Of a DNA stretch of 50,161 nt, positions 1 through 49,988 are shown in pieces. The stretch comes from an uncultured Candidatus Saccharibacteria bacterium (GTDB taxonomy: Bacteria; Patescibacteriota; Minisyncoccia; Minisyncoccales; RBG-13-42-11), in the NCBI GenBank assembly GCA_964467045.1, contig CAYXOH010000001.1, positions 4,850 to 55,010 on the forward strand, read 5' to 3'. Both the position numbers and the translations under genes were made by a program. Positions within the stretch are counted from its first letter, which is position 1; each line of letters opens with the position of its first letter. The notes below the pieces were generated by a model. It saw nothing but the letters and a program-made list of their open reading frames with translations, was not told the origin of the DNA and made no database searches.

Positions 1-1025
1 CTGTCAATTCTGACATTAGCTGTGATAGTGCCTGCTCCCAATCTGCAGCCTTTGTCAAAGATTGAATCTCCAAAATATCCTGAATGAGTATGAACGTCTT
101 CCTGAAAAATTGAGCGGGTAGCTTCAGCTAAAGCGCCGATTAAAACATTGTTTTCTAAGTTTGTATATTCCCTGACCAAAGAATTATTACCGATTACGCA
201 GTTGTCCCCGATATAACAAGGTCCCTTAATCACTGCTCCTTCATATATTTTTGCATTATTGCCAACATAAACTTTTCCTTTAATAACAACGTTTTTAGAA
301 ATCTGAGCTGAATTCTCAATTTTCCCCTTTAAGTATTTATCCATTAACATCTTGGTTATTTTTAATAAATCCCAGGGATATTTTAGAGACGGCACTTCTT
401 GTTCTACGTTTATTGCTAATCCTGCACCCTTTTCTTTGATGTAAAGGTTGAGTGCTTCCTCAAAAGCATACATTTTTTCCTCAATCCTTTTGAGATAATC
501 AATAAACTCCTTGGGCAAGATGTAAATTCCAATTACTCTAATATTTGAGGGTTCCTTGCCCTTTTCTGGTTTTTCTACCAAACCTATTACCTTATCTGGA
601 TTTGATTTATCCCTTACAAGGATGCCGTAATCCCAGGGCCTATCAGTTTCCTTACTGAACAATACTAATTCTGATTTTCCTTTTTGCAATTTTAATATGT
701 CCTCTATCTCAAAATGGTATGGATCTAAAACTAAAAACTGGCCATCAACCAAGCTTTCTGCCTTTAGAATGGCATCGCCCATTCCTTTCGGTTCTGGTTG
801 AACTACGTATTTAATATCAATATTAAATTGATACTCTTTCAATCCCTCTTCAACTTCTTTTTTAGGATCTTGAATTATGATAATATCTTTAATCCCGGAT
901 TCCTTTAAACTTTCAATAGTATACCAAATCAAAGGTTTCCCCATTATTTTAAGGAGACATTTATGACGCTGGTTCAGGGGCCAGAAACGAGATGACTCCC
1001 CGGCTGCTAAAATTACTGCCTGCAT
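1..1025 (-). CDS. Sugar-1-phosphate nucleotidyltransferase with C-terminal left-handed beta-helix domain (GlmU / archaeal ST0452-like); C-terminus lies beyond the window edge
   Basis: Not in the ORF track (no stop inside the window). My reverse translation from the ATG at 1025 reads [54 protein letters not shown]... (LAAGxxxR NTP-transferase loop). The window edge reads ...[19 protein letters not shown] (hexapeptide repeats). The start overlaps the yvcK-like stop by 13 nt. Confidence 0.8.
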
Positions 1026-4629: not shown

Positions 4630-4635
4630 TATCCA

Positions 4636-4768: not shown

Positions 4769-4807
4769 GAGTTTTACAGAACGCCGATTTTGAGTTTGGG
4801 GAAATAA
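4733..4807 (+). CDS. Candidate 24-codon small ORF (MSMMKEKLMEIKEFYRTPILSLGK)
   Basis: Internal ATG of track ORF 4613..4807. Paralogue of 4032-4112 (M-x-x-MKEKL-x-EIK shared). Confidence 0.25.
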   Translation: MSMMKEKLMEIKEFYRTPILSLGK

Positions 4808-4846
4808 AAAAACGGATATTGGCACTTGCCTCACCGTCTTTCTTTC

Positions 4847-14830: not shown

Positions 14831-15553
14831 TTATTTTTCTTTTTTAACAATGACCACAAATTCTCCTTTTATTTCTCCTGCTGGTATTTTTTTTATCACT
14901 TCCTCAATATTCCCGCGGTAAATCGTTTCAAACTTTTTAGTTAATTCACGACAAACAACAATTCTTAATTCTTTGTTCGCTGAGCGCAAGCGAGGCGGGA
15001 GATGAGGCGTAGCTTCAGCGACCTTAATTCCTAATTCGTTTAAGGTTTTGACTATTCTGTACGGAGATTCATAAAAAACAACCGGAAGTTTTGAATTAGC
15101 TATTTCTTCAAAAAACTTATTTCTTTTCTTTTTAACCGGCGGGAATCCCAAAAATGAAAATTTATCCATCGGAAAACCAGAAACACTGGCTGCCGCAATT
15201 ACAGCCGAGGCTCCGGGTAGGGGCACTACCTTCACCTGATTATTTAGTGACTCAATGACTTTTTCCACTAATTTTCCGCCGGGATCAGAAACTCCAGGAG
15301 TTCCAGCATCAGAAACCAAGGCTAAGTTTTTCCCCTCTTTTAAAATATTAATAATATATTCCACTTTCTTTAACTGGCTGTGTTCGTGATAACTTAAGGT
15401 TGGTTTTTTGATATTATAGTGATCCAGTAATTTTCTTGTTTCCCTGGTATCTTCGCATAAAATTAAATCAACCTCCTTTAAAACTTCTAATGCACGGAGG
15501 CTGACGTCTTTAAGGTTTCCGATTGGTGTAGCAACAATATAAAGCGCACTCAT
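14831..15553 (-). CDS. rsmI: 16S rRNA (cytidine1402-2'-O)-methyltransferase, with a short element-derived insertion
   Basis: 240 aa. LYIVATPIGNLKDVSLRA..LCEDTR signature and RELTKKFE. The extra peptide KVAEATPHLPPRLRSAN is encoded by the repeat at 14975-15023. Confidence 0.9.
   Translation of the reverse strand: MSALYIVATPIGNLKDVSLRALEVLKEVDLILCEDTRETRKLLDHYNIKKPTLSYHEHSQLKKVEYIINILKEGKNLALVSDAGTPGVSDPGGKLVEKVIESLNNQVKVVPLPGASAVIAAASVSGFPMDKFSFLGFPPVKKKRNKFFEEIANSKLPVVFYESPYRIVKTLNELGIKVAEATPHLPPRLRSANKELRIVVCRELTKKFETIYRGNIEEVIKKIPAGEIKGEFVVIVKKEK
14975..15023 (-). repeat. Two-hairpin element copy, in frame and sense inside rsmI
   Basis: The minus strand reads GGTCGCTGAAGCTACGCCTCATCTCCCGCCTCGCTTGCGCTCAGCGAAC. 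It aligns with the copy at 48001-48057. Confidence 0.8.
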
Positions 15554-16629: not shown

Positions 16630-16683
16630 GTTCGATGAGATAAATCTCATCTCTCGTCTTAATTTATATTTTATCTCTCGAAC
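16630..16683 (+). repeat. Two-hairpin element copy (intergenic), bounded by an imperfect 11-12 bp inverted repeat
   Basis: GTTCGATGAGATAAATCTCATCTCTCGTC....ATCTCTCGAAC. The first hairpin is GATGAGAT/ATCTCATC. Confidence 0.7.
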
Positions 16684-22071: not shown

Positions 22072-25000
22072 TTAAATCTTTTTAATTGCTAACCATAATT
22101 TTTGTTGCTCGACCTTTAATTCTTTTTTTATACCAAAAACTTGTTTTGGTTTTTCTCCTAAAACAAAATTTTTGACTTTTGCTTCTTTGATAATAAATTC
22201 TTTATTTTTTTGGAGGATTTTGTTTAAATTACCTTCTCCAAGAAATCTGACTAAAATTTTATCTTTTGGTTTCAAGTTGGCTTTCTTTCTCATCTCTTGG
22301 ATATTGCGGATTATCTCCCTGACGATGCCTTCTTCTTTAAGTAGCGGAGTTATTTTAGTATCTAATTCTAATTTTTCTTTAAGTTTAGAGTCAAAAACCA
22401 CTTCCTTAATGTTAACTTCTTCAGCAATTAAATTAAGTAAATCATTATCAATTTTTGACTTTTCGCTTTTAATTTTTAATTTTTGAAGCGGTTGTCTAAC
22501 TTTTATTCCGGCCCTTGCCCGCTCGGCCAGTGCTCTGGCAACAATTTCTCTTACCTCTCTCATCTTTTTTTCTAATTTATCATCTTTTATTTTTTTATTT
22601 TCTTCCGGCCAATCTTCTAAATGGCAACTTCTTTTCTTCCCCAGCCCCCGATAGATCACTTCACTTAGGAACGGAATAAAAGGAGCAGTTAGTTTGCTTA
22701 GAGTTAAAAGTGCAAAACTTAAAGTTTCCGAGACCTCTTTTAATTCTTTTTTGCTGGCAGGTTTTTGAAATCTCTTTCTGGAACGCCGGATGTACCATAA
22801 AGAAAGATCTTCAACTACAAAATTCTCAATTGCCCTAGCCGCACCAGTCACATTATACCTATTCAATCTTTGAGTGGCTTCCCGGATAAGATTATCTAGC
22901 CTGGCAATAACCCATTTATCAAGAATATGTTTGGATTTTGGAATTTGGGATTTGGAGTTTGGAATTTCTTTTTTTTGAGCATAGGTTCTTAAAAAAATAT
23001 ATGAGTTCCAGAAAGTCAAGATGAATTTTTTCAGAGCTTGGTCTACTTCTCTTTCAGAAAATAACTTAGCATCTCCCGGCTGGTTTATGGTGTAAAAGTA
23101 CCAGCGAGTGGCATCTGCTCCATATTCTTCAATAATAGAATTCGGTTCAACTACATTGCCTTTGGATTTTGACATCTTATCTCCTTTTTCATCTAAAACA
23201 TGACCCAAAGAGATAGCATTTTTATAAGTCGGCCCTTTCTTTAATAAAGTAGAGATAGCCAAAAGTGTATAAAACCACCCCCGGGTTTGATCAATGGCTT
23301 CAGAAATATAATCTGCCGGGAACTGTTCTTCCTGTAATTTTTGGTTTCCGAAAGGATAATGATATTGAGCAAAAGGCATAGCCCCTGAATCAAACCAGCA
23401 ATCAATCACTTCCGGAGTTCTCTCCATTAAGTTCTGGCATTTGGGACAATAAAATTTAACTTTATCAATGTAAGGACGGTGGAAATCTAATTCCATATTT
23501 TCGTTATACGGCAAATTACTGAACTTTAATTTTCTCAACTCTCCCGTTTTAATATGGGACCTCATTCTTTTTTCTACCATTTGTTTTTGGGAAAGTCCTT
23601 CGTTTGCCCCGGCCAAGGCAGTAATGGGGAATTCATGACTGATAATCAAAACTGTTTTATTCTGATATTTTTTATCGGTATCTTTTAAAAAAGAGTGCAT
23701 TCTTTTTTGTGCATCTGAATAATTTTCTCCTTTTGGTGCTCTAACTTTGAATCTTTTCAGATAATAATCTAATTTTTTAAGTTTTCTTTCCGGATCCCAA
23801 AATCTCCCCGCTATTTTAACTGATTTTCCGTTCAGACCGCCCATATCAAGTTCTCTTAATCTTTTGTCAAATTTCGGTTTAACTCCTGTCTCTCTTTCTA
23901 TAATTTCAGCTGTCTGTCTTGTTCTCAAAAGATCCGAAGAAAAAATTAAATCAATTTTAGCTTTTTTTATTTTTTCAGCCACTTTTGCAATTTGTCTTCT
24001 TCCTCTTTTTGTCAGGGAACATTTGCTTTTTTCTGGCCAGCAAGAAACTAAATTTTTGACATTTCTATCGGACTCCCCGTGTCTCAAAATAAGATATTTA
24101 TTACTGCTGAATTTTTTCAAGAGCAGGTCCTTTTTTGAACCAATAATTTCCACTTGGCCACATTTTTTACATTGCCAAACAGGCAGAGGTGTCCCCCAGT
24201 ATCTTTCCCTAGAAAAAGCCCAATCTTTAATTTCTCTTAACCATTCACCAAATCTCCCCTTTTTTAAATGAGCTGGAATCCAATTAATTTTTTGACTATT
24301 TGCAAGCAAACCTTTTCTGACCTTCTTTACATTTATAAACCAGCTTTGTTTAGCATAATAAAGCAAGGGTGAATTACATCGCCAACAAAAAGGATAATCG
24401 TGACTATAGGGCTCTTTTTTGAAAAGCAGGTTTCTCTTTTTTAAATCTTCAACAATTAAAGGATCAGCCTTTTTAACAAATATTCCTTTCCATGGTTTAA
24501 CTTCCGGAACGAAACAGCCAACTTCATCTACAGTAATAAAAATTGGTAAATTCTTTTCTTTTCCTAATTCCATGTCTTCTTCGCCAAAAGCCGGAGCTAT
24601 ATGAACCAATCCTGTTCCCTCTTCTAAAGAAACAAAGTTGCCAGCAACTATAAACCAAGCTTTTTTATCGGGTTTCATAAATTTATACAAAGGTTCGTAT
24701 TCTAACCCAATTAATTCTTTTCCTTTAATTTCTTCAACAATTTTCCCCTCCACCCCGGAAGCTTTCATTCTTTCCTTGGCTAAAATTAAATAGCAAGCCT
24801 CTTCCCTTGAGGAAGAAGGCGAAGATAAAGATGAGGACGAAGTCTTCATCGCCGATTCATTGTCAGCTTTCACTTTTACATAAGTTAAATTTGGGTTTAC
24901 AGCAACAGCAACATTACCGGGCAATGTCCAGGGAGTGGTCGTCCAAACCAATAAGCTGGTATCTGATTTTAATTTAAATTTTACATATATTGCCGGCTCT

Positions 25001-25587
25001 TCAATTCTTTCGTACCCCAAAGACACTTCATGAGAAGATAAACTCGTTCCACATCTTGGACAATAAGGAACTACTTTGTAATCCTGATAAATGAGGCCCT
25101 TTTTATAAATTTCTTTTAAAATCCACCAAACGCTTTCAATATATTCTGTTTCATATGTAATATAAGGATTTTTTAAATCCAACCAGAAACCGATTCTTTC
25201 GGTTAAACCTTCCCAATCTTTTTTATAATTCCAAACCGATTGTTTGCATAGTTTATTAAACTTAGCTATGCCGTATTTCTCAATATCTTTTTTGCTTTTC
25301 AATCCCAATTTCTTTTCAGTTTCTAATTCAACCGGCAATCCATGGGTATCCCAGCCAGCTTTCCTCAAAACTTTAAATCCCTGCATAGTTTTGTATCTAC
25401 AAATAATATCCTTATAAATTCTGCTTAAAACATGATGGATACCCGGTTTAGCATTAGCGGTTGGAGGTCCTTCAAAAAATACAAAATCCGGCGCCTTTTT
25501 CCGCTGCAAAATGGATTTTTCAAAAACTTGATTGTCTTGCCAAAATTTCAATATTTTCTTTTCGTTTTTGGGAAAATTTATCTCCAT
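22072..25587 (-). CDS. ileS: Isoleucine--tRNA ligase (type 2) carrying an embedded histidine-phosphatase domain and two repeat-derived insertions
   Basis: Start set at MEINFPKNEKKILKFWQ (ATG 25587, 8 nt after the argS stop); the track ORF extends 44 codons into argS. Has the PPTANAKPGIHHVLSR (HIGH-type) motif, the WAFSRERYWGTPLPVW motif and DKMSKSKGN. Confidence 0.93.
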   Translation of the reverse strand: MEINFPKNEKKILKFWQDNQVFEKSILQRKKAPDFVFFEGPPTANAKPGIHHVLSRIYKDIICRYKTMQGFKVLRKAGWDTHGLPVELETEKKLGLKSKKDIEKYGIAKFNKLCKQSVWNYKKDWEGLTERIGFWLDLKNPYITYETEYIESVWWILKEIYKKGLIYQDYKVVPYCPRCGTSLSSHEVSLGYERIEEPAIYVKFKLKSDTSLLVWTTTPWTLPGNVAVAVNPNLTYVKVKADNESAMKTSSSSLSSPSSSREEACYLILAKERMKASGVEGKIVEEIKGKELIGLEYEPLYKFMKPDKKAWFIVAGNFVSLEEGTGLVHIAPAFGEEDMELGKEKNLPIFITVDEVGCFVPEVKPWKGIFVKKADPLIVEDLKKRNLLFKKEPYSHDYPFCWRCNSPLLYYAKQSWFINVKKVRKGLLANSQKINWIPAHLKKGRFGEWLREIKDWAFSRERYWGTPLPVWQCKKCGQVEIIGSKKDLLLKKFSSNKYLILRHGESDRNVKNLVSCWPEKSKCSLTKRGRRQIAKVAEKIKKAKIDLIFSSDLLRTRQTAEIIERETGVKPKFDKRLRELDMGGLNGKSVKIAGRFWDPERKLKKLDYYLKRFKVRAPKGENYSDAQKRMHSFLKDTDKKYQNKTVLIISHEFPITALAGANEGLSQKQMVEKRMRSHIKTGELRKLKFSNLPYNENMELDFHRPYIDKVKFYCPKCQNLMERTPEVIDCWFDSGAMPFAQYHYPFGNQKLQEEQFPADYISEAIDQTRGWFYTLLAISTLLKKGPTYKNAISLGHVLDEKGDKMSKSKGNVVEPNSIIEEYGADATRWYFYTINQPGDAKLFSEREVDQALKKFILTFWNSYIFLRTYAQKKEIPNSKSQIPKSKHILDKWVIARLDNLIREATQRLNRYNVTGAARAIENFVVEDLSLWYIRRSRKRFQKPASKKELKEVSETLSFALLTLSKLTAPFIPFLSEVIYRGLGKKRSCHLEDWPEENKKIKDDKLEKKMREVREIVARALAERARAGIKVRQPLQKLKIKSEKSKIDNDLLNLIAEEVNIKEVVFDSKLKEKLELDTKITPLLKEEGIVREIIRNIQEMRKKANLKPKDKILVRFLGEGNLNKILQKNKEFIIKEAKVKNFVLGEKPKQVFGIKKELKVEQQKLWLAIKKI
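22928..22967 (-). repeat. Heptanucleotide tandem array (coding strand AYYCCAA x ~5.5) inside ileS
   Basis: The plus strand reads GTTTGG ATTTTGG AATTTGG GATTTGG AGTTTGG AATTT and encodes EIPNSKSQIPKSK. A sister array is at 25874-25906. Confidence 0.85.
23500..24102 (-). other. Histidine-phosphatase (PGAM / His_Phos_1-like) domain inserted in IleRS
   Basis: Residues ..YLILRHGESDRN....LTKRGRRQIAKV....IFSSDLLRTRQTAEII....LRELDMGGLNG....PKGENYSD..KRM..FL....VLIISHEFPI. All signature blocks of the family appear in order, between IleRS blocks KCGQVEIIGS and DFHRPYID. Confidence 0.8.
24793..24857 (-). repeat. Two-hairpin element copy, in frame and sense inside ileS
   Basis: The minus strand reads AATCGGCGATGAAGACTTCGTCCTCATCTTTATCTTCGCCTTCTTCCTCAAGGGAAGAGGCTTGC and encodes ESAMKTSSSSLSSPSSSREEAC. 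Confidence 0.8.
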
Positions 25588-25595
25588 AACTTTAT

Positions 25596-27143
25596 TTACA
25601 TTTTCTCTGGGGCAGAAATTCCCATTAATTCTAAAGTGTTCTTTAAGATAATTTTTGTAGCCAAAACCAGAGCTAAACGAGCTTGTGACAAAGACCTGCT
25701 TCCGGTCAGGACTCGACAATCCCTATAGAATTGATGGAAAGCGGTTGCCAGCTCTATTGAATATTGTGGTAATCGCTGAATTTGATAATCCTTGGCAGTG
25801 TCTTCAATAATTTCCGGCAATCTAATCAGTTGTTTAACCAAGTTAAATTCTGAAGGATGAACTAATAATTTTAAGTTTGGATTTTGGGATTTGGAATTTG
25901 GAATTTTTCGCAAGATACTGCAAATCCGGGCGTGGGCATACTGGACATAATAAACAGGACTTTTAGCAGATCTCTCTTTGGCCAAATCCACATCAAACTC
26001 CATCTGGGTATCTAACGATTTCATTAAATAAAAAAATCTTACTGCATCCAATCCCACTTCATTTATTAACCAGTCCAGAGTTATAACTTGCCCCTTCCTT
26101 TTAGAAATCTTTCCCTTTTTTAATCTGACTACCTGAGAAATTAAGATATCTAAATCTCCCTTATACCCCAACATCTTGGCCACTGCTTTTATTTTGCCGA
26201 CATGCCCCTGGTGATCAGCGCCCCAAATATTAATTATTCTATCAAATTTCCTTTCAAACTTATCTTTATGATAGACAATGTCAGAAAGCAAATAAGTTGG
26301 TTCTCCTGTTTCTCTAATTACTACCCAGTCTTTTACGTCACCATATTTTGAAGTTTTTAACCAAACAGCTCTTTCTTTTTTGTAAACTAAGTTTTTATTC
26401 GCCAGCCAATTTCTAATCTTGATTATCTTTCTTTTCTGGTATAAATCATTTTCTTCCGAAATCCATTTATCAAACTTAATTTTCATTTTATTTTCAATAA
26501 AATTTTTGATGTCTTTCTGAATTGATTGAGCTAACAGATATCCAGCCTCTCCTTCATTTTTAGATTTTTTTATTTTATTTTCTATTCTTTTAATTGCTTT
26601 TCTTAAATAATTTGTCAAATAAGTGGTTCCTCTACCCAAAGCAGTTTTTCCTAATTCTTTTATCTGGACACTGTTTTTAGAATCATTAATGTAATATTCA
26701 CGAGTAACCTTATAGCCAGATTTTTCTAAAATATTAGCCAGAGCATCACCAAAAAAAGCTCCCCTGCCGTGTCCTAAATGCAAGAGACCTGTAGGGTTAG
26801 CTGAAATAAATTCAATGTTCACCCTGCACTTTTTTCCGAAAAGTGCAGGGTGAAATTTTCCATAATTCTTTCCCTCCTTCAAAATATCTTTTACCTGTTT
26901 TTGTAAATATTCCCTGGAAAGAAAAAAATTGATAAAACCATTTTTCACTTCTACCTTCTCTAAAATGGGCGATTTTATGTTTTTAGCGATCTCTTGAGGG
27001 TTTTTCTTAAGAACCATCGCTACATTGGTAGCATAATCACCAAAGACTAGATCCACCGGCTCTTCTATTTCAACTTCTATCTTTTTCCCATAAAGACTTC
27101 TAATTGATTTTTCTACTGAATTTTTAATTTCTTCTTTAACCAT
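25596..27143 (-). CDS. argS: Arginine--tRNA ligase
   Basis: 515 aa. SANPTGLLHLGHGRGA (HIGH) and the C-terminal anticodon-binding domain ending ..ISAPEKM. Confidence 0.93.
   Translation of the reverse strand: MVKEEIKNSVEKSIRSLYGKKIEVEIEEPVDLVFGDYATNVAMVLKKNPQEIAKNIKSPILEKVEVKNGFINFFLSREYLQKQVKDILKEGKNYGKFHPALFGKKCRVNIEFISANPTGLLHLGHGRGAFFGDALANILEKSGYKVTREYYINDSKNSVQIKELGKTALGRGTTYLTNYLRKAIKRIENKIKKSKNEGEAGYLLAQSIQKDIKNFIENKMKIKFDKWISEENDLYQKRKIIKIRNWLANKNLVYKKERAVWLKTSKYGDVKDWVVIRETGEPTYLLSDIVYHKDKFERKFDRIINIWGADHQGHVGKIKAVAKMLGYKGDLDILISQVVRLKKGKISKRKGQVITLDWLINEVGLDAVRFFYLMKSLDTQMEFDVDLAKERSAKSPVYYVQYAHARICSILRKIPNSKSQNPNLKLLVHPSEFNLVKQLIRLPEIIEDTAKDYQIQRLPQYSIELATAFHQFYRDCRVLTGSRSLSQARLALVLATKIILKNTLELMGISAPEKM
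25874..25906 (-). repeat. Heptanucleotide tandem array (AYYCCAA x ~4.5) inside argS
   Basis: The plus strand reads AGTTTGG ATTTTGG GATTTGG AATTTGG AATTT and encodes KIPNSKSQNPNLK. It has the same frame and nearly the same sequence as the ileS array. Confidence 0.85.
26818..26854. repeat. Perfect 16-bp-stem hairpin inside argS coding sequence
   Basis: TTCACCCTGCACTTTT-ttccg-AAAAGTGCAGGGTGAA. It encodes KFHPALFGKKCRVN just before the HIGH region. Confidence 0.9.
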
Positions 27144-27783: not shown

Positions 27784-28132
27784 GGGGGTGAAAGGTTTAG
27801 ACAGGAATTTCAGTCAAAATAGGCAGATAGAGCTACTGGAATCTCTTAAAACTTCCAGTAAAACAAATAAGTGTCAACTTATTTAAGAAACCTGCTTTAG
27901 CTTACGTTTAAAGCAGCATCCGATTTATTGATTCTCGCTAGGTAAAAACCGGGTGTCATATTCAGCGAGATAAGATAGTTCTTTTGTCTCGAAAACTATC
28001 TAAAAGATAGAGACGAGTGGTACCAGAATTTTTGTCTGTTTTTTATCTGGTATTTCAAAAATCAAAACAGAATAAATCTGTAGAGATATTTTGACTAAAT
28101 TTTTGGACGGGAGTTCGCCCTCCCCACCTCCA
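27784..28132 (+). ncRNA. ssrA: tmRNA (transfer-messenger RNA)
   Basis: 5' GGGGGTGAAAGGTTTAGACAGG and 3' GGACGGGAGTTCGCCCTCCCCACCTCCA form the tRNA-Ala-like domain (acceptor GGGGGTG/CACCTCC with G3:U70; T stem GGGAG/CTCCC). It lies directly after smpB. An internal frame ..AAG AAA CCT GCT TTA GCT TAC GTT TAA (..KKPALAYV*, stop 27909-27911) lies in an 8-bp helix like a tag ORF; the resume codon is not assigned. CCA is not encoded (the sequence reads ACA). Confidence 0.85.
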
Positions 28133-28142
28133 CAAAAATCTG

Positions 28143-28650: not shown

Positions 28651-28851
28651 ATGAGTAAGTTAAAAACCAGAAAATCATTTACCAAACGTTTCAAAATTAC
28701 TAAAACTGGAAAAATATTGAGAAGGGCTACCGGTCTTAACCATTATCGGGCAAAAAAATCCGGTCAAAAAATAAGACAAAGTAGAAAATGGGTTAAAGTT
28801 TCCAGAAGTGAAGCTAAAAAAATAAAGAAATTACTGCCACATCGTCGATGA
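28651..28851 (+). CDS. rpmI: 50S ribosomal protein L35
   Basis: 66 aa. MSKLKTRKSFTKRFKITKTGKILRR.. is typical L35. The stop TGA lies inside the first repeat unit. Confidence 0.93.
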   Translation: MSKLKTRKSFTKRFKITKTGKILRRATGLNHYRAKKSGQKIRQSRKWVKVSRSEAKKIKKLLPHRR

Positions 28852-29009
28852 ATTTAAAGATTCATCTTCATCTGCGCCCACTACGTGGGCTTGATAACAG
28901 TCGATGAATTTAAAGATTCATCTTCATCTGCGCCCACTACGTGGGCTTGATAACAGTCGATGAATTTAAAGATTCATCTTCATCTGCGCCCACTACGTGG
29001 GCTTGATAC
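28845..29009 (+). repeat. Three direct tandem units (56, 56, 53 nt) of the two-hairpin element filling the rpmI-rplT spacer
   Basis: The unit is TCGATGAATTTAAAGATTCATCTTCATCTGCGCCCACTACGTGGGCTTGATAACAG, starting at 28845, 28901 and 28957. The hairpins are GATGAAT/ATTCATC and GCCCAC-tac-GTGGGC. Confidence 0.92.
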
Positions 29010-29357
29010 ATGACTAGAGTAAAAAGAGGAAAAATTGCTCACAAAAGAAGAAAGCGTTTATTAAAATACGCCAAAGGTTTCCGCTGGGGCAGAAAAACAA
29101 AATACAGATTAGCTAAAGATGCTCTCTATCATGCTTGGGAATACGCTTACCGAGACAGAAGAACAAAGAAAAGAGAGTTTAGAAAACTCTGGCAAATCCA
29201 GATTAATGCTGCTTGCAGACAAGCTGGAATTTCTTATAGCAGATTTATTTACGGCCTCAAAAAAAACAAAATTGGCTTAGATAGAAAAATTTTATCTGAA
29301 CTAGCTCAAAACCACTCCGAAATTTTTGAAAAACTCGTAGAAAAAGTAAGAGGCTAA
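29010..29357 (+). CDS. rplT: 50S ribosomal protein L20
   Basis: 115 aa. MTRVKRGKIAHKRRKRLLKYAKGFRWG.. is canonical L20. Confidence 0.95.
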   Translation: MTRVKRGKIAHKRRKRLLKYAKGFRWGRKTKYRLAKDALYHAWEYAYRDRRTKKREFRKLWQIQINAACRQAGISYSRFIYGLKKNKIGLDRKILSELAQNHSEIFEKLVEKVRG

Positions 29358-29690: not shown

Positions 29691-31175
29691 CTAAATAGGT
29701 CGGATGTCGGCTTCTTCCTGAAGCTGTTTTATATTCTTAAATCCCTGTTTTTGCAGAGATTGTTTTACTCCAATAATTAATTTAGGGAGGAAATTATAGC
29801 CAGACCCTCGATAAGGGACCTTGACTACTACACCTTCAGCAATTCTTGTTTTTACTTTATCTACTGCATATCTGATAGCCGATCTCTGTTCCATAGCCTC
29901 CAAAGACCCCATGCCTCGATATTTTTTAACCATTCTATTCTCTTCGTAATCAAACTCTTTCTCACCGGGCGATTCATCTAAACCAGCAAGAATACTTCCC
30001 ATCATTACAGTTTGAGCGCCTAAGGATAAAGCTTTACTAATATCTCCTGGTTTTTGAACGTCTTGTCCTGCCTCATCCATTACCCTTATTCCTCCATCAG
30101 CAATTAAGGGCATGAAGCCATATTTTGATTCCAACCTTTTAGCTTCCTGAGCACAATCCCAAACCGCTGAAGCCTGGGCTCTGCCCGTCCCGAGTTCCTG
30201 CTGGGTGATACAGGCTGCTCCCGGACCAATGCCTACTCTTATTGCATCGCAAAATTCAAAAGCCTCCTCCATAATTTTTCTAACCATCTCTGCTGAATCA
30301 ACGTTTCCTAAAATAACCTGCAAATCAGGAAAATTTTCTTTAACAAACTTAGCAATTCCTAATTGTTCCCTAAAAACTACGCTGGCATCAACAACTATGC
30401 CGTCAGCCCCGGCATCAGACGCTTTGCCAATTCTCTCTTTAACCAGACTCAACCTGGATTCTGCAGCAATAAATACTTTTAATTGTTTGTTTCCGTCTTT
30501 GGTTGCTAAAGGAAACTGTTCATTTTTCCTAATGTCTGAGTCAGTCACTAAAGCGACTATGTTATCTGCTTCATCTATTATAATTAAAGTATCCAAATTG
30601 TTCTCTCTTATAATCTTATTAGCCGCATTAAGATTGTTTCTATCAACTATTTCTGATTTTTTACCCACGATTAATTTTTCCCTGGGAGTCATCACCTCGC
30701 TTAATTTAGTTTCCATGTCTGCCCTATATCTAACATCCCTATGGGTGACGATTCCTTTTAATTTTGAATTTAGAGTTCCATCTTCAGTAATGGGAGTACT
30801 GAAAAATCCATATTTTTCTGCAATATTATAAACATCTTGAATCGTATTTTGAGAAGATAAAACAACAGGATCATAAACAAACCCTGCCTCAAATTCTTTT
30901 ACTTTTTCTACTTCTTCGATTTGTTCGTCTATAGTTTGGAAATTATAATGGATAACCCCGATTCCTCCCATCAAAGCCATTAAAATTGCCATTTGAGATT
31001 CGGTAACCGTATCCATTGGGGAGGAAACGAAAGGGGTTTTCAAGATTATTTTTTTAGTAAACTGAGTTGTCAAATTTACTGTATCCCGCTCAAAATCAGG
31101 CAACCTATTGGGAACGAGAGTAATATCTTTGTACCAAAATTCTTTATTTTGTAAGTCAGGATGTAATTTTGCCAT
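29691..31175 (-). CDS. guaB: Inosine-5'-monophosphate dehydrogenase (with CBS pair)
   Basis: 494 aa. ..LTTQFTKKIILKTPFVSSPMDTVTES.., GIGPGAACITQ (catalytic Cys loop) and ADGGIR motifs. Confidence 0.9.
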   Translation of the reverse strand: MAKLHPDLQNKEFWYKDITLVPNRLPDFERDTVNLTTQFTKKIILKTPFVSSPMDTVTESQMAILMALMGGIGVIHYNFQTIDEQIEEVEKVKEFEAGFVYDPVVLSSQNTIQDVYNIAEKYGFFSTPITEDGTLNSKLKGIVTHRDVRYRADMETKLSEVMTPREKLIVGKKSEIVDRNNLNAANKIIRENNLDTLIIIDEADNIVALVTDSDIRKNEQFPLATKDGNKQLKVFIAAESRLSLVKERIGKASDAGADGIVVDASVVFREQLGIAKFVKENFPDLQVILGNVDSAEMVRKIMEEAFEFCDAIRVGIGPGAACITQQELGTGRAQASAVWDCAQEAKRLESKYGFMPLIADGGIRVMDEAGQDVQKPGDISKALSLGAQTVMMGSILAGLDESPGEKEFDYEENRMVKKYRGMGSLEAMEQRSAIRYAVDKVKTRIAEGVVVKVPYRGSGYNFLPKLIIGVKQSLQKQGFKNIKQLQEEADIRPI

Positions 31176-31512
31176 GGGTGTTAATTATTATTCCTTCGTT
31201 TTTTAATAAAGTGTTTTTCCTTTTAGTTCCCCGATTATAGCCACCAATTTTTCCAGTTGATGAAGACTTCGTTTTCATCTCCACGCTTCGCTTCGCTCGC
31301 GTATCTGATTTTATAATTCTGTGACAGGGAATTTTTGGATTTACATTTTTATTTAACACATTCCCTACTGCTCGCCAAGCCTTAGGCCTTCCGACAAGCT
31401 TAGCTACTTGTTTATAAGTCATTACTCTTCCCCTTGGAATTTTCTTAACAACCTCATAAACCTTATCTTCAAAATTTGTTTTATGTTCTATGTTCCATGT
31501 TCTATGTTTCAT
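31156..31512 (-). CDS. ogt: Methylated-DNA--protein-cysteine methyltransferase (Ogt/MGMT C-terminal domain type) with an element-derived insertion
   Basis: 118 aa. IPRGRVMTYKQVA, PCHRII (active site) and GKIGGY. A 16-aa insertion, TRAKRSVEMKTKSSST, lies between them. Confidence 0.85.
   Translation of the reverse strand: MKHRTWNIEHKTNFEDKVYEVVKKIPRGRVMTYKQVAKLVGRPKAWRAVGNVLNKNVNPKIPCHRIIKSDTRAKRSVEMKTKSSSTGKIGGYNRGTKRKNTLLKNEGIIINTHGKITS
31256..31302 (+). repeat. Two-hairpin element copy inside ogt, antisense to the gene, frame preserved
   Basis: The plus strand reads GTTGATGAAGACTTCGTTTTCATCTCCACGCTTCGCTTCGCTCGCGT. The first 24 nt are almost identical to the ileS copy. Confidence 0.8.
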
Positions 31513-31520
31513 GTTCTATG
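31482..31520. repeat. Heptanucleotide tandem array (plus YATGTTY, minus RAACATR, ~5.5 units) spanning the NUDIX stop and the ogt start
   Basis: TATGTTC TATGTTC CATGTTC TATGTTT CATGTTC TATGAG. The ogt ATG (31512) and the NUDIX TAG (31502-31504) both lie inside it. Confidence 0.85.
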
Positions 31521-33658: not shown

Positions 33659-33660
33659 AT

Positions 33661-33772
33661 GCCGAGCCTCGTATAACAAGGCGAATGTAAAGATGAGAAC
33701 AAAATTCTCATCGCCTGCCGAGCCCCGCCCTGCGAGGCGAAGGCGAAGATGAGAAGAAAATTCTCATCGCCT
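33661..33772 (-). repeat. Two direct tandem 56-nt units of the two-hairpin element filling the spacer upstream of polX
   Basis: The units are 33661-33716 and 33717-33772. The minus strand of unit 2 reads AGGCGATGAGAATTTTCTTCTCATCTTCGCCTTCGCCTCGCAGGGCGGGGCTCGGC. Confidence 0.88.
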
Positions 33773-38920: not shown

Positions 38921-39943
38921 ATGGTTGAGATAGATGGGATATATTTAGAGGGCGGCGGACAGATTTTGCGGACGGCTATTGCCTTAGCGGTAGTTACCAA
39001 GAAACCCTGCCGGGTTTTTAATATTCGTAAAGGACGCCCTAAGTCAGGTCTGGTCCAACAGCATCTTTTAGGAATTCAAGCCTTAGCTCAACTTTGTGAA
39101 GGAAAATTAGAAGGGGATTATTTGGGCTCAGAAGAAATTAAATTTTTTCCTGGAGAAAAATACAGGGACCGGGTCTCTGTAAATATTCCAACGGCCGGCA
39201 GCCTGACATTGGTTTTACAAGCTTTAATTCCCCCATCTCTCTCAGTTCCCTCTCCGACAACTATAATTTTCAACGGCGGAGCTACTGATACTTTTTTCTC
39301 ACCAACCATTGATTACTTTCGTTTCGTTTTTCTAAAAATCTTAGGGAAAATGGCTGCTAAAATAGAAATAAATATTCTGAAAAGAGGATATTATCCGGAA
39401 GGCGGAGCTCAGCTAGAATTGATAATTTGTCCAGCCAAATTAAAAAATCTAAATCTGACCGATAGAGGACTATTCAAAAGTATTGCTGCGATTTCTGGTG
39501 CTTCGGAAATTTTAAAAGACAAAAAAGTTGCCGAAAGACAATTGGCGGGAGTAAGAGAAGTTTTGGGTAAATTAAACTTGCCCATTGAAGAAAAGATAGA
39601 ATATTATCAAACTAAAAATTCCGGAAGCCAGGTTTTTTTAATGGCCGAATTTGAAAATACAATAATCGGTACTGACAATCTTGGAAAATTGGGAAAAAGA
39701 GCAGAAGATGTCGGCAAAGAAGCAGCCCTGGGACTGTTAAAAGAACAGAAATCCGAAGCTTGTTTAGATAAATATTTAGCTGACCAGATTCTCCCCTATT
39801 TAGCTCTGGCTGACGGTAAAAGTCAGGTCGCTGTTTCTGAAATTACTAATCATTGCAAAACTAACATTTGGGTTATTGAGAAATTTCTTGAGGGAAAATT
39901 TGAAACTAAAGGAAATTTAATTAAATGGTTTCCAAGTCGATGA
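38921..39943 (+). CDS. rtcA: RNA 3'-terminal phosphate cyclase
   Basis: Start set at MVEIDGIYLEGGGQILRTAIALA (ATG 38921); the 46 upstream codons of the track ORF are not conserved-looking. The stop TGA lies in the repeat at 39936. Confidence 0.88.
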   Translation: MVEIDGIYLEGGGQILRTAIALAVVTKKPCRVFNIRKGRPKSGLVQQHLLGIQALAQLCEGKLEGDYLGSEEIKFFPGEKYRDRVSVNIPTAGSLTLVLQALIPPSLSVPSPTTIIFNGGATDTFFSPTIDYFRFVFLKILGKMAAKIEINILKRGYYPEGGAQLELIICPAKLKNLNLTDRGLFKSIAAISGASEILKDKKVAERQLAGVREVLGKLNLPIEEKIEYYQTKNSGSQVFLMAEFENTIIGTDNLGKLGKRAEDVGKEAALGLLKEQKSEACLDKYLADQILPYLALADGKSQVAVSEITNHCKTNIWVIEKFLEGKFETKGNLIKWFPSR

Positions 39944-39987
39944 AAAATTTTTCATCTTCACCTTCATCCGCCGGAGGCGAACTCGGT
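39936..39987 (+). repeat. Two-hairpin element copy filling the rtcA-ispH spacer
   Basis: GTCGATGAAAAATTTTTCATCTTCACCTTCATCCGCCGGAGGCGAACTCGGTAA. The hairpins are GATGAAAAA/TTTTTCATC and CGCC-gga-GGCG. Confidence 0.85.
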
Positions 39988-46467: not shown

Positions 46468-47181
46468 TTATTTCTCAGCCACCAGATAAATATTACTTTC
46501 CTTTGTTTTGGTTTTTTTTAGGATTCCAATTTTTTTAATTTTAAGGCCTGCTTTTTGGATTATTTTTCTCAATCCACTAGCCGTAAAACAATGAATATAT
46601 CTTAGAGTAATATCCTGCCATAAAACAAAAAAATCACCAAAATCTAATTTTGCTTTTCCAAAAATCTTCAGGAGTTGATATTTAAAGAAGGCTTTAACTC
46701 TCTTGTATTCACCTATTAAAATCATTCGAAAAGGATTCAGGTTCCAAACGGTTAAAATAAGAACGCCTCCGGGTTTTAAAATCCTCCTTGTTTCTTTTAA
46801 TAATTGGAGCTGAAGTTCTTCGGAAGGAAGATGATGGATAACAGCAAAGCTAAAAACTTTATCAAAGGAATTTTCAGGAAAAGGTAAGCTTAAAGCATCA
46901 GCAATCCTAAGGTCAACTTTGGGATATTTTTTTCTGGCGATCTCAATCATCTTTTCAGAATTATCCACTCCCACATATTCAATCTTTTTCTGAAAAACTT
47001 CAGAAAATCTTCCATTACCGCAACCCAAATCTAAAACTTTGTCACCTGGGGTGATATACTGTAAAAGTAGACTCTTTTGTTCCTCTGGAATATATTCTCT
47101 AGTCTTTGAAAAATCTTCAGCAATCTGGTTATAATCTTTCCGAGTTTTTTCTAATAAATATTTTGCGTATTCTTTATCCAT
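46468..47181 (-). CDS. Class I SAM-dependent methyltransferase, Trm9/ALKBH8-MT-like
   Basis: Start set at MDKEYAKYLLEKT (ATG 47181). IAEDFSKTR, VLDLGCGNGRF and FSFAVIHHLPSEE...LLKETRRILKPGG.LILTVWN match my memory of the Trm9 signature blocks (AVIHH, L.PGG, VW). Confidence 0.75.
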   Translation of the reverse strand: MDKEYAKYLLEKTRKDYNQIAEDFSKTREYIPEEQKSLLLQYITPGDKVLDLGCGNGRFSEVFQKKIEYVGVDNSEKMIEIARKKYPKVDLRIADALSLPFPENSFDKVFSFAVIHHLPSEELQLQLLKETRRILKPGGVLILTVWNLNPFRMILIGEYKRVKAFFKYQLLKIFGKAKLDFGDFFVLWQDITLRYIHCFTASGLRKIIQKAGLKIKKIGILKKTKTKESNIYLVAEK

Positions 47182-48781
47182 GGATGTCCAAAAAATCATT
47201 ATCCAAGAATTAATCAAAACCAAAGCAAAGACTTTGGAGGATTTAGCTAAGGTTAAAAGATGGGCGGCTAAAAAATATAAAACCCCTTGCTCCAGTAATA
47301 TTATTCTACTAAAAACTTACCACGAATTAGTCAAAAATAAAAAGGTAAAAAAATCCTCCATTATTGAAACCTTACTCAGAACCAGACCTATCCGTTCTCT
47401 TTCCGGCATTGTTAATATTTCAGTCTTAACTAAACCTTATCCTTGTCCTGGTAAATGTTTATATTGCCCCCTGGAAAAAGGCATTCCTAAAAGTTATTTA
47501 TCAGGAGAACCTGCAGTAGAAAGGGCTAAAAAACTAAATTACAATCCCTATTTACAAGTTGAAAAGAGAATTGAAATGCTGGAAGCTACAGGCCACCCCA
47601 CAGATAAAATTGAATTAAGAATTGTTGGTGGAACTTGGTCCTGTTACCCAAAAGATTACCAGAGTCAATTTATAAAGAAATGTTTTGATGCTTGTGATAA
47701 GAAGATTGGTAAAACTCTGAAGGAATCTCAAAGATTGAATGAAAAAGCAAAACACAGAATAATTGGTTTATCAATTGAAACAAGGCCAGATTTTATTAAT
47801 CCAACCGAAATCAAAAGGTTAAGGAATTTTGGCGTAACCATGGTAGAGTTGGGAGTTCAATCTATTTATGATGATGTTTTGAAATTAAATTTAAGAGGCC
47901 ACGGAGTCAAAAGAACAATTGTAGCCACAAAACTTTTAAAAGATACCGGTTTCAAAATCCTTTACCAAATGATGCCAAACCTTCCGGGTTCTAATTTAAA
48001 GGTCGCTGAGACAAAGTCTCATCTTCCGCCTCGCGCTACTTTGCAGCGCTCAGCAAGAGATGAAAAAATGTTTGAAGAATTATTTTCCAATCCTAATTTT
48101 CAGCCAGATTTATTAAAGATTTATCCTTGCGCCTTAGTAAAAGAAGCTCCTTTATATAAATGGTGGAAACAAGGAAAATACAAACCTTATACAGAAAAAC
48201 AATTAATAAGCTTAATAAAATCTATTAAACAGAAAATTCCTTATTATGTAAGAATTCAAAGAATAAGTAGAGATATTCCTTCCCCGGCCATTGTTGCAGG
48301 GGGTGCCAAAGTTTCTAACTTGCGTCAGATTCTACTTGGGAATATGAAAAGAGAGGGTTGGCAATGTAAATGTATCAGATGCAGAGAAGTAAAAGAAAAT
48401 TACGATCGGAAGGAAAAGGTTTACCTCTTTAGAATAAATTACATAGCTTCTGATGGAAAAGAAATATTCCTAAGTTTTGAAAATAAAAACAGAACAAAGA
48501 TTTTCAGTCTGCTCCGTCTTCGCATCACCTCTCAAAAAACAGCCATCATCAGAGAACTCCACACTTACGGCCAGCTCCAGCCAATAGCAGAGAAAGTTTC
48601 TGTTATTTCTCCTCAACACAAAGGATTAGGTAAAAGACTAATGAAAGAAGCAGAAAAAATAACCAAAAAAGAATTTGGTTTGAATAAAATTGCCGTAATT
48701 TCCGGCGTCGGAGCAAGAAATTATTATCGTAAACTAGGCTACAAACTAAAAAACACTTATATGACGAAAGTCCCTCTTTAA
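47180..48781 (+). CDS. elp3: Elp3-type radical-SAM / GNAT tRNA uridine(34) carboxymethyl-modification enzyme, with an element-derived insertion
   Basis: 533 aa. Radical-SAM cluster CPGKCLYCP, MPNLPGS, LKIYPC and C-terminal GNAT QHKGLGKRLMKEAE. The extra peptide LKVAETKSHLPPRATLQRSAR is encoded by the repeat. Confidence 0.9.
   Translation: MDVQKIIIQELIKTKAKTLEDLAKVKRWAAKKYKTPCSSNIILLKTYHELVKNKKVKKSSIIETLLRTRPIRSLSGIVNISVLTKPYPCPGKCLYCPLEKGIPKSYLSGEPAVERAKKLNYNPYLQVEKRIEMLEATGHPTDKIELRIVGGTWSCYPKDYQSQFIKKCFDACDKKIGKTLKESQRLNEKAKHRIIGLSIETRPDFINPTEIKRLRNFGVTMVELGVQSIYDDVLKLNLRGHGVKRTIVATKLLKDTGFKILYQMMPNLPGSNLKVAETKSHLPPRATLQRSARDEKMFEELFSNPNFQPDLLKIYPCALVKEAPLYKWWKQGKYKPYTEKQLISLIKSIKQKIPYYVRIQRISRDIPSPAIVAGGAKVSNLRQILLGNMKREGWQCKCIRCREVKENYDRKEKVYLFRINYIASDGKEIFLSFENKNRTKIFSLLRLRITSQKTAIIRELHTYGQLQPIAEKVSVISPQHKGLGKRLMKEAEKITKKEFGLNKIAVISGVGARNYYRKLGYKLKNTYMTKVPL
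48001..48057 (+). repeat. Two-hairpin element copy, in frame and sense inside elp3
   Basis: GGTCGCTGAGACAAAGTCTCATCTTCCGCCTCGCGCTACTTTGCAGCGCTCAGCAAG, with terminal inverted repeat GCTGAG/CTCAGC. Confidence 0.85.
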
Positions 48782-48794: not shown

Positions 48795-49988
48795 TTAGAA
48801 AATCTCAGGCCGATAGCCGTCTAGACAGCGCAACCTTTTTTGAGCCTTAACTTTCTCTGAAATAGAAATGTTGCTTTTTTGAATTCCTTTTTCTAAAATT
48901 TCCAAAGTTTTATCATAGGTTTCTCTATCAACAGGAAAAGGAGTGCCGTCTTTCCCTCCAACGGAAAAAGTGTAACGAGCCGGGTCTTGATAAGAGGGTT
49001 TTGCTCCGTAAATTATTTCTGAAACCAAAGAAAGGGCTCTGATTGTCCTCGGACCTATACCCTTCAATGAAAGAAATTGTTCAAAGTTTTTTGGCTCTTC
49101 GGCCCGGGCTCCTGAAATTGTTTTCTCTAACCTTTTCAAATCAAATTTTTCTTCGACAACAGGATGCCAGTAGAATTCTTTGTCGTATAATTTCATTGTT
49201 GTCAGATTTTTTGATTTTTTAACGCGATGAAGTTTTCCGCTCTCGGGTTTGCCTTCATCTTTACTTTCGCTCGGCTTCGCCTCGCTTAGTGTTTGAATTA
49301 AATTTAAATCTTTTAAGAATTGCTTTGGCTCTTCTTTAACTAAACCGAGAGAAATTTCTCTGTTATTGTTGCTTTTTTTTGCGGTTAAATTAAGAGGTTT
49401 TGCCCTAGCTCCGGATATAATGCCTGAATGAGGTTCCTCGATAAAATCTTTAGCAGCGGAAGATAGCCAATGATAACGGCGAGCGGTCTGATTTTGCGTA
49501 TTCATTCCCTGCTGAACAACTACCCAGTTACCCGATTTAGTAAATAAAAAATTATGCTGATAAATCTGGTATTTATCCTGAATAAGAGCAGAATCAACTT
49601 TAGCGGCCATTTTTGAAGCGTAAATTAATTTCGAGGCGAAAGGAAATTGCCTAGAAATTCCGTAAGCAGTAATTTCTTCCGGGGTTTTTCTTGATTCTCT
49701 TTTGCCACCGCAAACATAAACTCCTAACTGGTCTTGTATTTCAAAAAGTCCGGCTTTCAGTGCCCCCAGGGTTGTCACCGTCAGGCCCGAGGAATTCCAA
49801 TCAAAACCCATAACACACCCCAAGCTCTGGAACCAAACCGGATCTGACAATCTCTTTAAAAATTCTTCCGGACCGAATTCTTCAACAATTGCCAGAGCAA
49901 CACCTCGGCCAAGCCTTTTCATTCTTTCAAAAAGCCATCTCGGACACCGCCCATAATCAAGAGGTACTGTAGCAATTCCTGTTCTCAT
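48795..49988 (-). CDS. DUF763 domain protein (HhH-containing), with an element-derived insertion
   Basis: 397 aa. ..PLDYGRCPRWLFERM.., LSDPVWFQSLGCVMGFDWNSSGLT and LKGIGPRTIRAL (HhH). The family call is from memory. Confidence 0.75.
   Translation of the reverse strand: MRTGIATVPLDYGRCPRWLFERMKRLGRGVALAIVEEFGPEEFLKRLSDPVWFQSLGCVMGFDWNSSGLTVTTLGALKAGLFEIQDQLGVYVCGGKRESRKTPEEITAYGISRQFPFASKLIYASKMAAKVDSALIQDKYQIYQHNFLFTKSGNWVVVQQGMNTQNQTARRYHWLSSAAKDFIEEPHSGIISGARAKPLNLTAKKSNNNREISLGLVKEEPKQFLKDLNLIQTLSEAKPSESKDEGKPESGKLHRVKKSKNLTTMKLYDKEFYWHPVVEEKFDLKRLEKTISGARAEEPKNFEQFLSLKGIGPRTIRALSLVSEIIYGAKPSYQDPARYTFSVGGKDGTPFPVDRETYDKTLEILEKGIQKSNISISEKVKAQKRLRCLDGYRPEIF
49223..49286 (+). repeat. Two-hairpin element copy inside the DUF763 gene, antisense to the gene, frame preserved
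   Basis: CGCGATGAAG-(20 nt)-CTTCATCTTTACTTTCGCTCGGCTTCGCCTCGCT. It encodes (antisense) LSEAKPSESKDEGKPESGKLHR. Confidence 0.75.

Follow-up and report, generated by a model that had tools for sequence, protein, structure and literature searches.

The window examined here, a 50,161-nt stretch of contig CAYXOH010000001.1 from an uncultured patescibacterium, is AT-rich (35.3% GC) and carries, within the genes for the unrelated enzymes Elp3 and RsmI, two copies of a short GC-rich palindromic repeat that add in-frame peptides to both proteins. Coordinates given for window copies are positions in this stretch. The host genes and their copies are arranged as follows.

47180..48781, + strand: Elp3 host gene, a radical SAM/GNAT tRNA U34 modification enzyme (TIGR01211, E=1.9e-163; Pfam PF04055 and PF16199)
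48002..48055, + strand: Elp3 copy of the repeat, canonical form of 54 nt (53 + 1), in frame, encoding VAETKSHLPPRATLQRSA (covariance model 73.5 bits, E=5.7e-21)
14831..15553, - strand: RsmI host gene, a 16S rRNA C1402 2'-O-methyltransferase (NCBIfam TIGR00096, E=3.6e-68)
14978..15022, - strand: RsmI copy, short 45-nt form without the upper part of hairpin 2, in frame, encoding VAEATPHLPPRLRSA (covariance model 46.7 bits, E=1.5e-12)

A preliminary description of this DNA had proposed that one DNA element, in one frame, was acquired by two unrelated enzymes, and that the likeness between them lies at the nucleotide level. Both points are borne out, and the phenomenon spans many more genes than these two. 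The letters read as that description gave them, with coordinates displaced by 2-3 bases: the Elp3 peptide K-VAETKSHLPPRATLQRSA occupies 19 codons (47999-48055), of which 48002-48055 is the insert proper, and the RsmI peptide K-VAEATPHLPPRLRSA occupies 16 codons (14978-15025), with the insert proper at 14978-15022. The two copies share the DNA blocks AAGGTCGCTGAR, 7 nt, CTCATCTYCCGCCTCGC, 11 or 2 nt, and GCGCTCAGCR, and the three differences between them in these conserved blocks are synonymous. Together they form the top inverted repeat of the entire 50-kb window (36 nt, 83%). The core CATCTYCCGCCTCGC finds exact matches in the window at these two copies only; with three or fewer mismatches it finds four matches against 0.62 expected, a count that no shuffled sequence reached. 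The covariance model that recovered the RsmI copy at 46.7 bits had a seed from which that copy was excluded. A terminal inverted repeat GCTGAG/CTCAGC, also proposed, is present; it is confined to a 6-bp GCTGAG / CTC(A/G)GC pair that lies 3 nt in from the 5' end and overlaps the first hairpin of the element.

Comparison with homologues confirms the earlier suggestion that the segment is an insertion. Alignment to solved structures opens a gap of 18 residues at the Elp3 insert (6iaz) and of 14 residues at the RsmI insert (3kwp and 5hw4; 14-15 residues with the relatives P0125 and P0153). Of the 120 nearest Elp3 homologues about 114 are without the segment, as are most RsmI homologues, and no equivalent from unrelated phyla appears among the solved-structure homologues or the nearest 120 homologues of each protein. 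The 18-codon Elp3 block, between NLK and RDEKMF, has six carriers among those 120 (the query, P0001, which is identical to it, P0004, P0010, P0052, and one more), while P0002 and P0003, the closest relatives, lack it. The 15-codon RsmI block is present in the query, P0121-P0124, and P0129, and absent in P0125, P0126, P0153, and the majority of the rest. Even very close relatives, not just other lineages, can lack the insert: one empty Elp3 allele (locus L006) has 92% protein identity and 81% four-fold-site identity to the window Elp3. In a neighbour-joining tree of Elp3 calculated with the insert columns removed, the carriers form three clades, and each of these has a sister without the insert. 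Both the Elp3 site and the RsmI site are occupied in a second genome, GCA_964354835.1, as is a third site.

Structure prediction, put forward earlier as a way to see whether both inserts map to surface loops, gave a partial answer. In the RsmI AlphaFold model (mean predicted local distance difference test score, pLDDT, 74.9), the insert falls after helix 167-181 and before strand 196-204, where model confidence is lower and the length of the region differs widely among homologues; this is compatible with a surface loop and stops short of proof. The Elp3 model is too poor (mean pLDDT 60) for the insert to be placed. As far as these models go, surface exposure of the inserts is plausible. Five RsmI homologues (P0128, P0177, P0199, P0201, and P0233) have, in this loop, additional peptides of 10-25 residues that differ from the insert and look unrelated to it, such as ...TYLPASHLGSRPWQGGN.... 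A recurrent RsmI loop peptide, LEAKTYNLEP, was considered as a further element and rejected, its coding DNA being AT-rich at the background 33% GC.

The element recurs well beyond these two genes. We scanned with the pattern GTCGCTGAGN6TCTCWTCTNNCGCYTCG, derived from eight known copies and leaving 31 of the 53 positions free, which matched 86 places in metagenome contigs and seven in species-representative genomes, among them a complete Nealsonbacteria chromosome. Adding the loci already known brings the total to 103 copies in 20 flank clusters, or 19 distinct sites, since two clusters represent the same GatB position. All but one of the 19 sites lie within identified genes, and the remaining one has no identifiable host. 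The hosts identified by Pfam are Elp3, RsmI, GatB, Pth, an FtsA-like protein, TrmD, iPGM, EF-Ts, DnaG, RNase HII, Tmk, a release factor, MreB, SecF, PCMT, a FabA-like protein, a PHP protein, and DUF1858. With three more from the window (IleRS, an MGMT-like protein, and DUF763) added to these 18, in-frame hosts number at least 21, most of them essential. All copies that a clear host gene reads through have lengths divisible by three (45, 51, 54, 63, or 69 nt) and are stop-free in the host frame. The covariance model detected about 25 more divergent copies at 62 other loci, about half of them intergenic; intergenic copies mostly measure 43, 52, 55, 56, or 64 nt, so that most are not multiples of three. 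The repeat family is spread through the AT-rich genomes of Nealsonbacteria-like Patescibacteria (the Candidate Phyla Radiation, CPR). Source names on near-identical proteins place the organism of the window in Candidatus Nealsoniibacteriota. Viral contigs scanned with two patterns gave no match, and neither did a protein search with a 90-residue peptide concatemer at E<=10.

The identity of frame proposed for the first two hosts holds in part. The same VAE-x3-HLPPR...SA frame is used in many hosts, 16 of the pattern-scan sites reading VAE[TA]xSHLPPR...SA, but about five of the 24 genic sites have the opposite orientation (19 forward versus 5 reverse; binomial p=0.007). The Pth and FtsA-like sites are among the latter, with the other strand read as ...GDETKSQR....

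At the DNA level, comparison of occupied sites (L001-L005 and L007-L009) with empty ones (L006 for Elp3, L010 for RsmI) shows exact junctions. The element enters as a block beside a one-sided motif, leaving scarless junctions and no target-site duplication: none was found in the four filled/empty comparisons (Elp3, RsmI, IleRS, and DUF763), at which one base at most is shared, and microhomology at the junctions, considered in the same comparisons, was rejected as none extends past that one base. The base preceding the element (-1) is G in 19 of 20 flank clusters. The right flank follows the motif AATTGANG (A-A-T-T-G-A-N-G), with A at +6 in all 20 clusters, G at +5 in 17, and G at +8 in 15. This motif is native host sequence at Elp3 and RsmI, where the empty alleles contain it, and at GatB, which without its 18 insert residues has the length of T. 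maritima GatB; the I-E codons (ATTGAA) are therefore the gene's own. The end base of the element also goes with flank base +5, which is G at 27 of 27 independent sites for copies ending in CTCGGC and at 2 of 7 for those ending in CTCAGC (Fisher p=7.5e-5). The covarying element base is position 51 and the pattern is G/G and A/A. Because the end base predicts the flank base, the element falls into two subtypes that differ in target motif.

The canonical copy, GTCGCTGAGACTTCGTCTCATCTCCCGCCTCGCCCCGCTTCGCGGGGCTCGGC, is 53 nt plus one base long, within a family range of 38-69 nt. A 5-nt tail, GTCGC, leads into hairpin 1 (TGAGAC-TTC-GTCTCA), followed by a C-rich spacer and hairpin 2, whose lower stem GCC/GGC supports a 7-bp upper stem of free sequence closed by a TTC loop; the 5' block GTCGCTGAG is conserved. 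Short forms of 44 nt (RsmI, DnaG) and 38 nt have a hairpin 2 that lacks its upper part. GC content is 58-72% in the copies and 35% in the genome that holds them. Applied to 37 distinct 53-nt copies, the two-hairpin model leaves 91.9% of pair positions paired, against 32-55% with slid partners. In hairpin 2, six of the seven pairs show compensatory, both-sided changes, and the covariation score is 0.306 versus 0.140 for shuffles, none of 500 of which equalled it. RNAalifold found both hairpins independently, plus the lower-stem pairs 27-53 and 28-52, and the 29-51 pair changes from C-G to T-A in several copies. Folded as single-stranded DNA, the consensus has a free energy of -15.1 kcal/mol (z=-3.85) and its complement -17.0 kcal/mol (z=-4.68). 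A shared hairpin was not obtained by folding the two window copies alone (z -0.7 and +0.6); it was seen once many copies were aligned.

Mismatches of the G.U type and the C.A type are about equally frequent, and therefore neither strand is favoured as RNA. The loop of hairpin 1 differs between copies at the same RsmI site, GAA versus TTC (L007 10532-10575 versus L009 5769-5812), and Elp3 copies vary likewise; this switch amounts to the flip of a perfect palindrome and is indirect evidence that a hairpin or cruciform forms in vivo. The constraint acts on the nucleic acid and not on the peptide, because the stems change sequence yet stay paired, so that the C-terminal half of the peptide varies freely. 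In the reverse-oriented copies at the Pth site (L036, L051, and L080) and the FtsA-like site (L014 and L023), a direct internal duplication of 15 nt (CGCCTCGCTYGGCTT) replaces hairpin 2; present in one to three units, it gives PSEA(K/E) repeats to the host protein.

The window as a whole holds about 14 copies at nine loci, five of them inside genes, a density of ~0.3 per kb with all variants counted and of 0.04 per kb for canonical copies. Besides those in Elp3 and RsmI, the copies are the following.

33660..33771, - strand: two tandem 56-nt variant copies (GGCGATGAGAA...CTCGGCA), intergenic, membrane-protein gene / PolX (37.5 bits, E=1.1e-9, and 31.5 bits, E=8.2e-8)
28844..29011, + strand: three tandem 56-nt units (GTCGATGA, hairpin 1, CATCT, hairpin GCCCAC/GTGGGC), intergenic; direct-repeat family D1
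39936..39987, + strand: decayed copy, intergenic, with no spanning open reading frame (ORF) (covariance model 19.5 bits, E=4.8e-4)
31256..31300, + strand: copy inside the MGMT-like gene (31159..31515, - strand), reverse orientation, in frame as ...TRAKRSVEMKTKSSST... (14.2 bits, E=0.023)
24793..24855, - strand: 63-nt variant in frame in IleRS (SAMKTSSSSLSSPSSSREEAC), a weak model match (9.9 bits, E=0.51)
49221..49289, + strand: 69-nt variant inside DUF763 (48795..49988, - strand), reverse orientation, read as LSEAKPSESKDEGKPESGKLHRV
16631..16675, + strand: tentative, weak candidate relic, intergenic, with no spanning ORF (covariance model 12.9 bits, E=0.057)

The tandem copies at 33660..33771 constitute direct-repeat family D2 and share GGCGATGA...CTCATCTT...CTTCGCCT with the IleRS insert. 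The units at 28844..29011 are 95-100% identical (two of the three 100%), with no long ORF across them; each scores 11.7 bits (E=0.14), which is insufficient by itself, and the array is assigned to the family by its architecture. It has a differing 3' end (TTGATAACA) and lies ~700 nt downstream of the tmRNA gene (27784-28135). A clustered regularly interspaced short palindromic repeat (CRISPR) array was considered here and rejected, the units standing head to tail without spacers. The target motif is also matched by the variant form at its own 5' end (GGCGATGAG), and head-to-tail arrays may arise from this fit.

Among the genic copies, the IleRS insert is a clean 21 codons, missing in the close relative L007 and in L008, and the DUF763 insert is 23 codons, missing in L001, L003, and L004 and near-identical to a copy at L023 94-161 (model E=0.0023). 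The MGMT-like host (PF01035) has ~17 residues added directly after the PCHR motif relative to PDB 4zyg. This protein, of 118 residues, comprises the C-terminal DNA-binding/active-site domain only, and to judge from its sequence it tolerates the ~17-residue insert directly after its PCHR active-site motif. IleRS (22072-25719, - strand) contains a complete histidine-phosphatase domain, PF00300 (residues 543-715), within the synthetase, an architecture also found in L007 165-3623, L008 1-3286, and L104 1-3103. The last of these, from a further lineage, has a model match in reverse orientation within IleRS (L104 2667-2719, - strand; 17.2 bits, E=6e-4) at a position that differs from that of the window insert. 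RtcB contains an intein (PF14890) in one relative and is intein-less in another, where a free-standing LAGLIDADG ORF lies adjacent (L001 7232-9373 versus L002 6484-9468); homing elements are therefore active in these genomes.

The source of both peptides is probably a small non-autonomous, GC-rich, non-coding palindromic mobile repeat that resembles, in its effect, the Rickettsia palindromic elements (RPEs). Genic copies would persist only where they are read as a short hydrophilic, Pro/Ser/Ala-rich loop at a tolerant position, a filter that would explain the recurring VAETSSHLPPR..SA frame, and the likewise hydrophilic reverse frames would account for the smaller share of sites. The consensus has six reading frames, of which four are open. 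The one read forward, VAETSSHLPPRPASRGSA, has a mean hydropathy of -0.63, the reverse frames are more hydrophilic still, and the amphipathic +2 frame (SLRLRLISRLAPLRGAR) is used at no site. The copies in host genes are presumably translated.

The element would be moved by a trans-acting enzyme that recognizes single-stranded DNA hairpins, possibly one of the HUH type. The best mechanistic fit would be HUH/Y1 "peel-and-paste" transposition, as in IS200/IS605 and the gene-less palindrome-associated transposable elements (PATEs), or a system like that of repetitive extragenic palindromic (REP) sequences and REP-associated tyrosine transposases (RAYTs); the peel-and-paste fit follows from the hairpins near both ends, the one-sided motif, the lack of a duplication, and the exact empty sites. 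The patchy same-site distribution would reflect scarless excision, repeated insertion at a few best-matching targets, or both. Empty alleles are exact in close relatives and presence is patchy on the Elp3 tree, a pattern in which loss and a site never occupied look alike. Locus L056 contains five copies in 3.3 kb, four of which (3184-5137; +, -, -, +) surround a small toxin-antitoxin-like gene pair between rpsP and a KH-domain gene, upstream of trmD. This arrangement suggests that the repeats mark or promote the insertion of other cargo; no transposase is present at this locus.

Several observations weigh against a mobile repeat of this kind. No transposase or mobilizing gene was found in the 805 kb comprising the window and the loci, in a weak test by tblastn with an IS200 TnpA query. 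Known PATEs and RPEs are much longer than the element, its end-base/flank covariation (G/G, A/A) is not Watson-Crick as would be expected for IS608-type guide-target pairing, and translation of the inserts is deduced from frame and length only. A further difficulty is conservation. Same-site copies are identical at 51-54 of 54 positions in five genes (96-100% in most genes) between lineages whose host genes have diverged to saturation at neutral sites, and a purely selfish element should decay. The pairs compared are these.

GatB, L067 versus L068: host four-fold-site identity 0.50 (7/13 near the insert; 79% protein identity), element 54/54
Tmk, three pairs: host four-fold-site identity 0.43-0.62, element 51-53/54
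EF-Ts, L030 versus L048: host four-fold-site identity 0.66, element 53/54
TrmD, L018 versus L024: host four-fold-site identity 0.61, element 52/54
iPGM, L089 versus L025: host four-fold-site identity 0.65, element 53/54

The Elp3 and RsmI inserts are 76-91% identical between lineages in which host four-fold identity is 36-48%; these copies were found through protein homology and are free of bias from the DNA pattern. A third GatB lineage (L037) has a different stem variant at the same site, with 42 of 54 positions identical and four compensatory pairs. Same-site identity in diverged hosts implies either an in-situ constraint, that is, a function, or copies far younger than the divergence of their hosts. 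A recent recombination tract carrying the insert between lineages was considered and is unsupported: synonymous-codon identity is raised only a little in the flanks, at 65-72% versus 55-57% gene-wide, and near the GatB insert it is 7 of 13. Two readings are left. In one, constraint acts on every base where it stands, through sequence in the blocks and through pairing in the stems; in the other, copies much younger than the host divergence have been installed repeatedly at the same sites.

These data give some room to a different view of the element, as a non-coding "homing" or driven sequence unlike an ordinary decaying transposon relic, which we regard as rather unlikely. The same stem variant sits at the same codon of one essential gene, up to 100% identical, in lineages whose hosts are saturated at neutral sites, with no recombination tract in the flanks and with scarless empty alleles in close relatives. 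It could imply an active system that repeatedly installs and removes the element at specific CPR sites with targeting tied to the end base, or alternatively drive or host function constraining every base.

Among explanations that compete with a mobile repeat, the one that survives best holds that the element is kept or re-installed by a homing-like process, by biased DNA uptake and recombination in the manner of a long uptake signal sequence, or through a host function such as binding a DNA- or RNA-binding protein, so that its high conservation would be due to drive or purifying selection. It accommodates directly the 51-54 of 54 identities in GatB, Tmk, EF-Ts, TrmD, and iPGM against host four-fold identities of 43-66%, and the 76-91% identity of the Elp3 and RsmI copies against 36-48%. 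Also in its favour are the persistence across lineages of site-specific stem variants, such as the GCGCCGC that Elp3 has in three clades, the patchy presence on the Elp3 tree with its insert-less sisters, and the maintenance of 58-72% GC in a 35% GC genome. Yet no recombination tract accompanies the insert (flanks 65-72% versus 55-57% gene-wide; GatB 7/13), decayed relics in the same window speak against a general host requirement, and the parity of G.U-type and C.A-type mismatches, together with the occurrence of both orientations relative to transcription, speaks against a function at the mRNA level. Uptake sequences, moreover, arise by point mutation and not as 54-nt blocks, and two stem variants occupy one GatB site. 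On balance we consider this explanation unlikely.

Very improbable is a selected peptide module, in which KVAE-x3-HLPPR..RSA would be a useful short linear motif such as a proline-rich binding site. The single frame used at 19 of 24 genic sites, the synonymous nature of the three block differences between the two window copies, and the conservation of the N-terminal half VAETSSHLPPR as protein could all be read in this way. That N-terminal peptide, however, is the translation of a DNA block conserved in non-coding copies also, and the C-terminal half varies freely while pairing holds. Reverse copies encode unrelated peptides (...GDETKSQR, ...RAKRSVEMK...), there are intergenic tandem arrays too, and close relatives do without the insert.

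We give just as little credence to an untranslated intervening sequence, removed from the mRNA or bypassed by the ribosome like the byp elements of Magnusiomyces mitochondria, which derive from GC clusters. GC-cluster-derived inserts are bypassed in yeast mitochondrial genes (PMC8811140), and the stable hairpins of the present element would suit such a role. Against this, genic copies of 45, 51, 54, 63, and 69 nt are all stop-free, a length filter expected only if they are translated, and the junctions offer no matching take-off and landing codons. Artefact, in the form of an assembly chimera, adapter contamination, or chance similarity, draws only on the prior that metagenome assemblies can err and is effectively refuted by the recurrence of the same insert at the same codon in independent JGI, ENA, and NCBI assemblies with lineage-specific substitutions, by the frame being kept in every case, and by a chance expectation for the core motif far under the observed count.

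In-frame palindromic repeats in essential genes have until now been essentially a matter of Rickettsia, with a loose parallel in yeast mitochondria. Their occurrence, much smaller and sharply defined, in Patescibacteria, likewise a lineage of reduced genomes and one in which few mobile elements are known, suggests that such repeats may be a general fate of AT-rich reduced genomes. The small non-autonomous repeat proposed here has only 53 bases and two hairpins, its target motif can be read, and public groundwater metagenomes supply many filled/empty allele pairs. It is a tractable model that makes testable how gene-less hairpin elements move, whether their excision is scarless, and why copies stay near-identical despite host divergence. 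The inserts also inflate apparent protein divergence and can mislead CPR marker alignments and phylogenies (GatB, IleRS, EF-Ts, RF, DnaG, and SecF), and they would mark surface positions that tolerate 15-23 extra residues.

We compared the element with known systems. No Rfam family matches the window copies or four element-bearing loci, and the literature, searched by topic and by sequence string, yielded no earlier account of it in CPR/Patescibacteria. A miniature inverted-repeat transposable element (MITE) was rejected on the absence of target-site duplication at the four filled/empty comparisons, and an intein on length, 18 residues being far too short. No autonomous insertion sequence with matching ends was seen in the 805 kb of fetched DNA. 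DNA uptake sequences and uptake signal sequences (DUS/USS) resemble the element as over-represented conserved DNA motifs in coding regions with preferred frames, and upkeep by drive would explain conservation above neutral. Such sequences are 10-30 nt motifs made by point mutation, with no inserted hairpin blocks, and the window densities given above, ~0.3 and 0.04 per kb, are lower than theirs.

REP sequences, their paired forms (REPINs), and RAYTs offer a likeness in short (20-40 nt per hairpin) GC-rich imperfect palindromes of many copies, sometimes tandem or paired, with conserved bases beside the hairpin. REPs lie outside genes by definition and have GTAG as their 5' signature, whereas the canonical form here is genic at 18 of 19 sites and begins GTCGC (5' block GTCGCTGAG), with no GTAG. 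No RAYT gene was seen in the fetched DNA, a weak test.

In-frame residence in genes is not known as a habit of IS200/IS605 elements. IS200/IS605 TnpA and gene-less PATEs insert beside a motif without scar or duplication (PMC10055086); the hairpins near both ends, the lack of target-site duplication, and the one-sided conserved motif are common to both (PMC10055086), and the exact empty sites found here match the scarless excision of IS200/IS605. The present element is several-fold smaller, with hairpin feet 5 nt or less from the ends, its covariation is not Watson-Crick, and no TnpA match was found in 805 kb, in a weak test.

The GC clusters of yeast mitochondria, which lie in frame in var1 and cause its size polymorphism (PMC8811140), are likewise short, GC-rich, palindromic, mobile clusters in a very AT-rich genome, mostly intergenic and sometimes in frame in genes, with biased transmission or patchy presence and variants that arise by merging or duplication (PMC8811140). 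As they belong to an organelle genome and not a bacterium, this is an analogy only. Their AG/TAG terminal repeats are taken as target duplications, of which there are none at the four filled/empty comparisons here, and some genic GC clusters are bypassed, whereas the present copies, from their sequence, look translated.

The nearest counterparts in effect are the RPEs, palindromic repeats that lie in frame in genes (PMC10969869). They too are dispersed through a reduced genome, lie in numerous unrelated genes of mainly housekeeping function, give the protein a conserved peptide compatible with its fold, and have a mobilizing mechanism that is likewise unsettled (PMC10969869). RPEs measure ~100-150 bp and form ten families in an alphaproteobacterial genus; the present element, at 45-54 nt, is about one-third that size and belongs to Patescibacteria. 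It further differs in being GC-rich in an AT-rich genome, in its two hairpins with free-sequence stems, in its one-sided target motif, and in its near-identity across diverged lineages. The element works like an RPE and is not a member of RPE-1..10, from which it is set apart by size and organism and not by sequence comparison.

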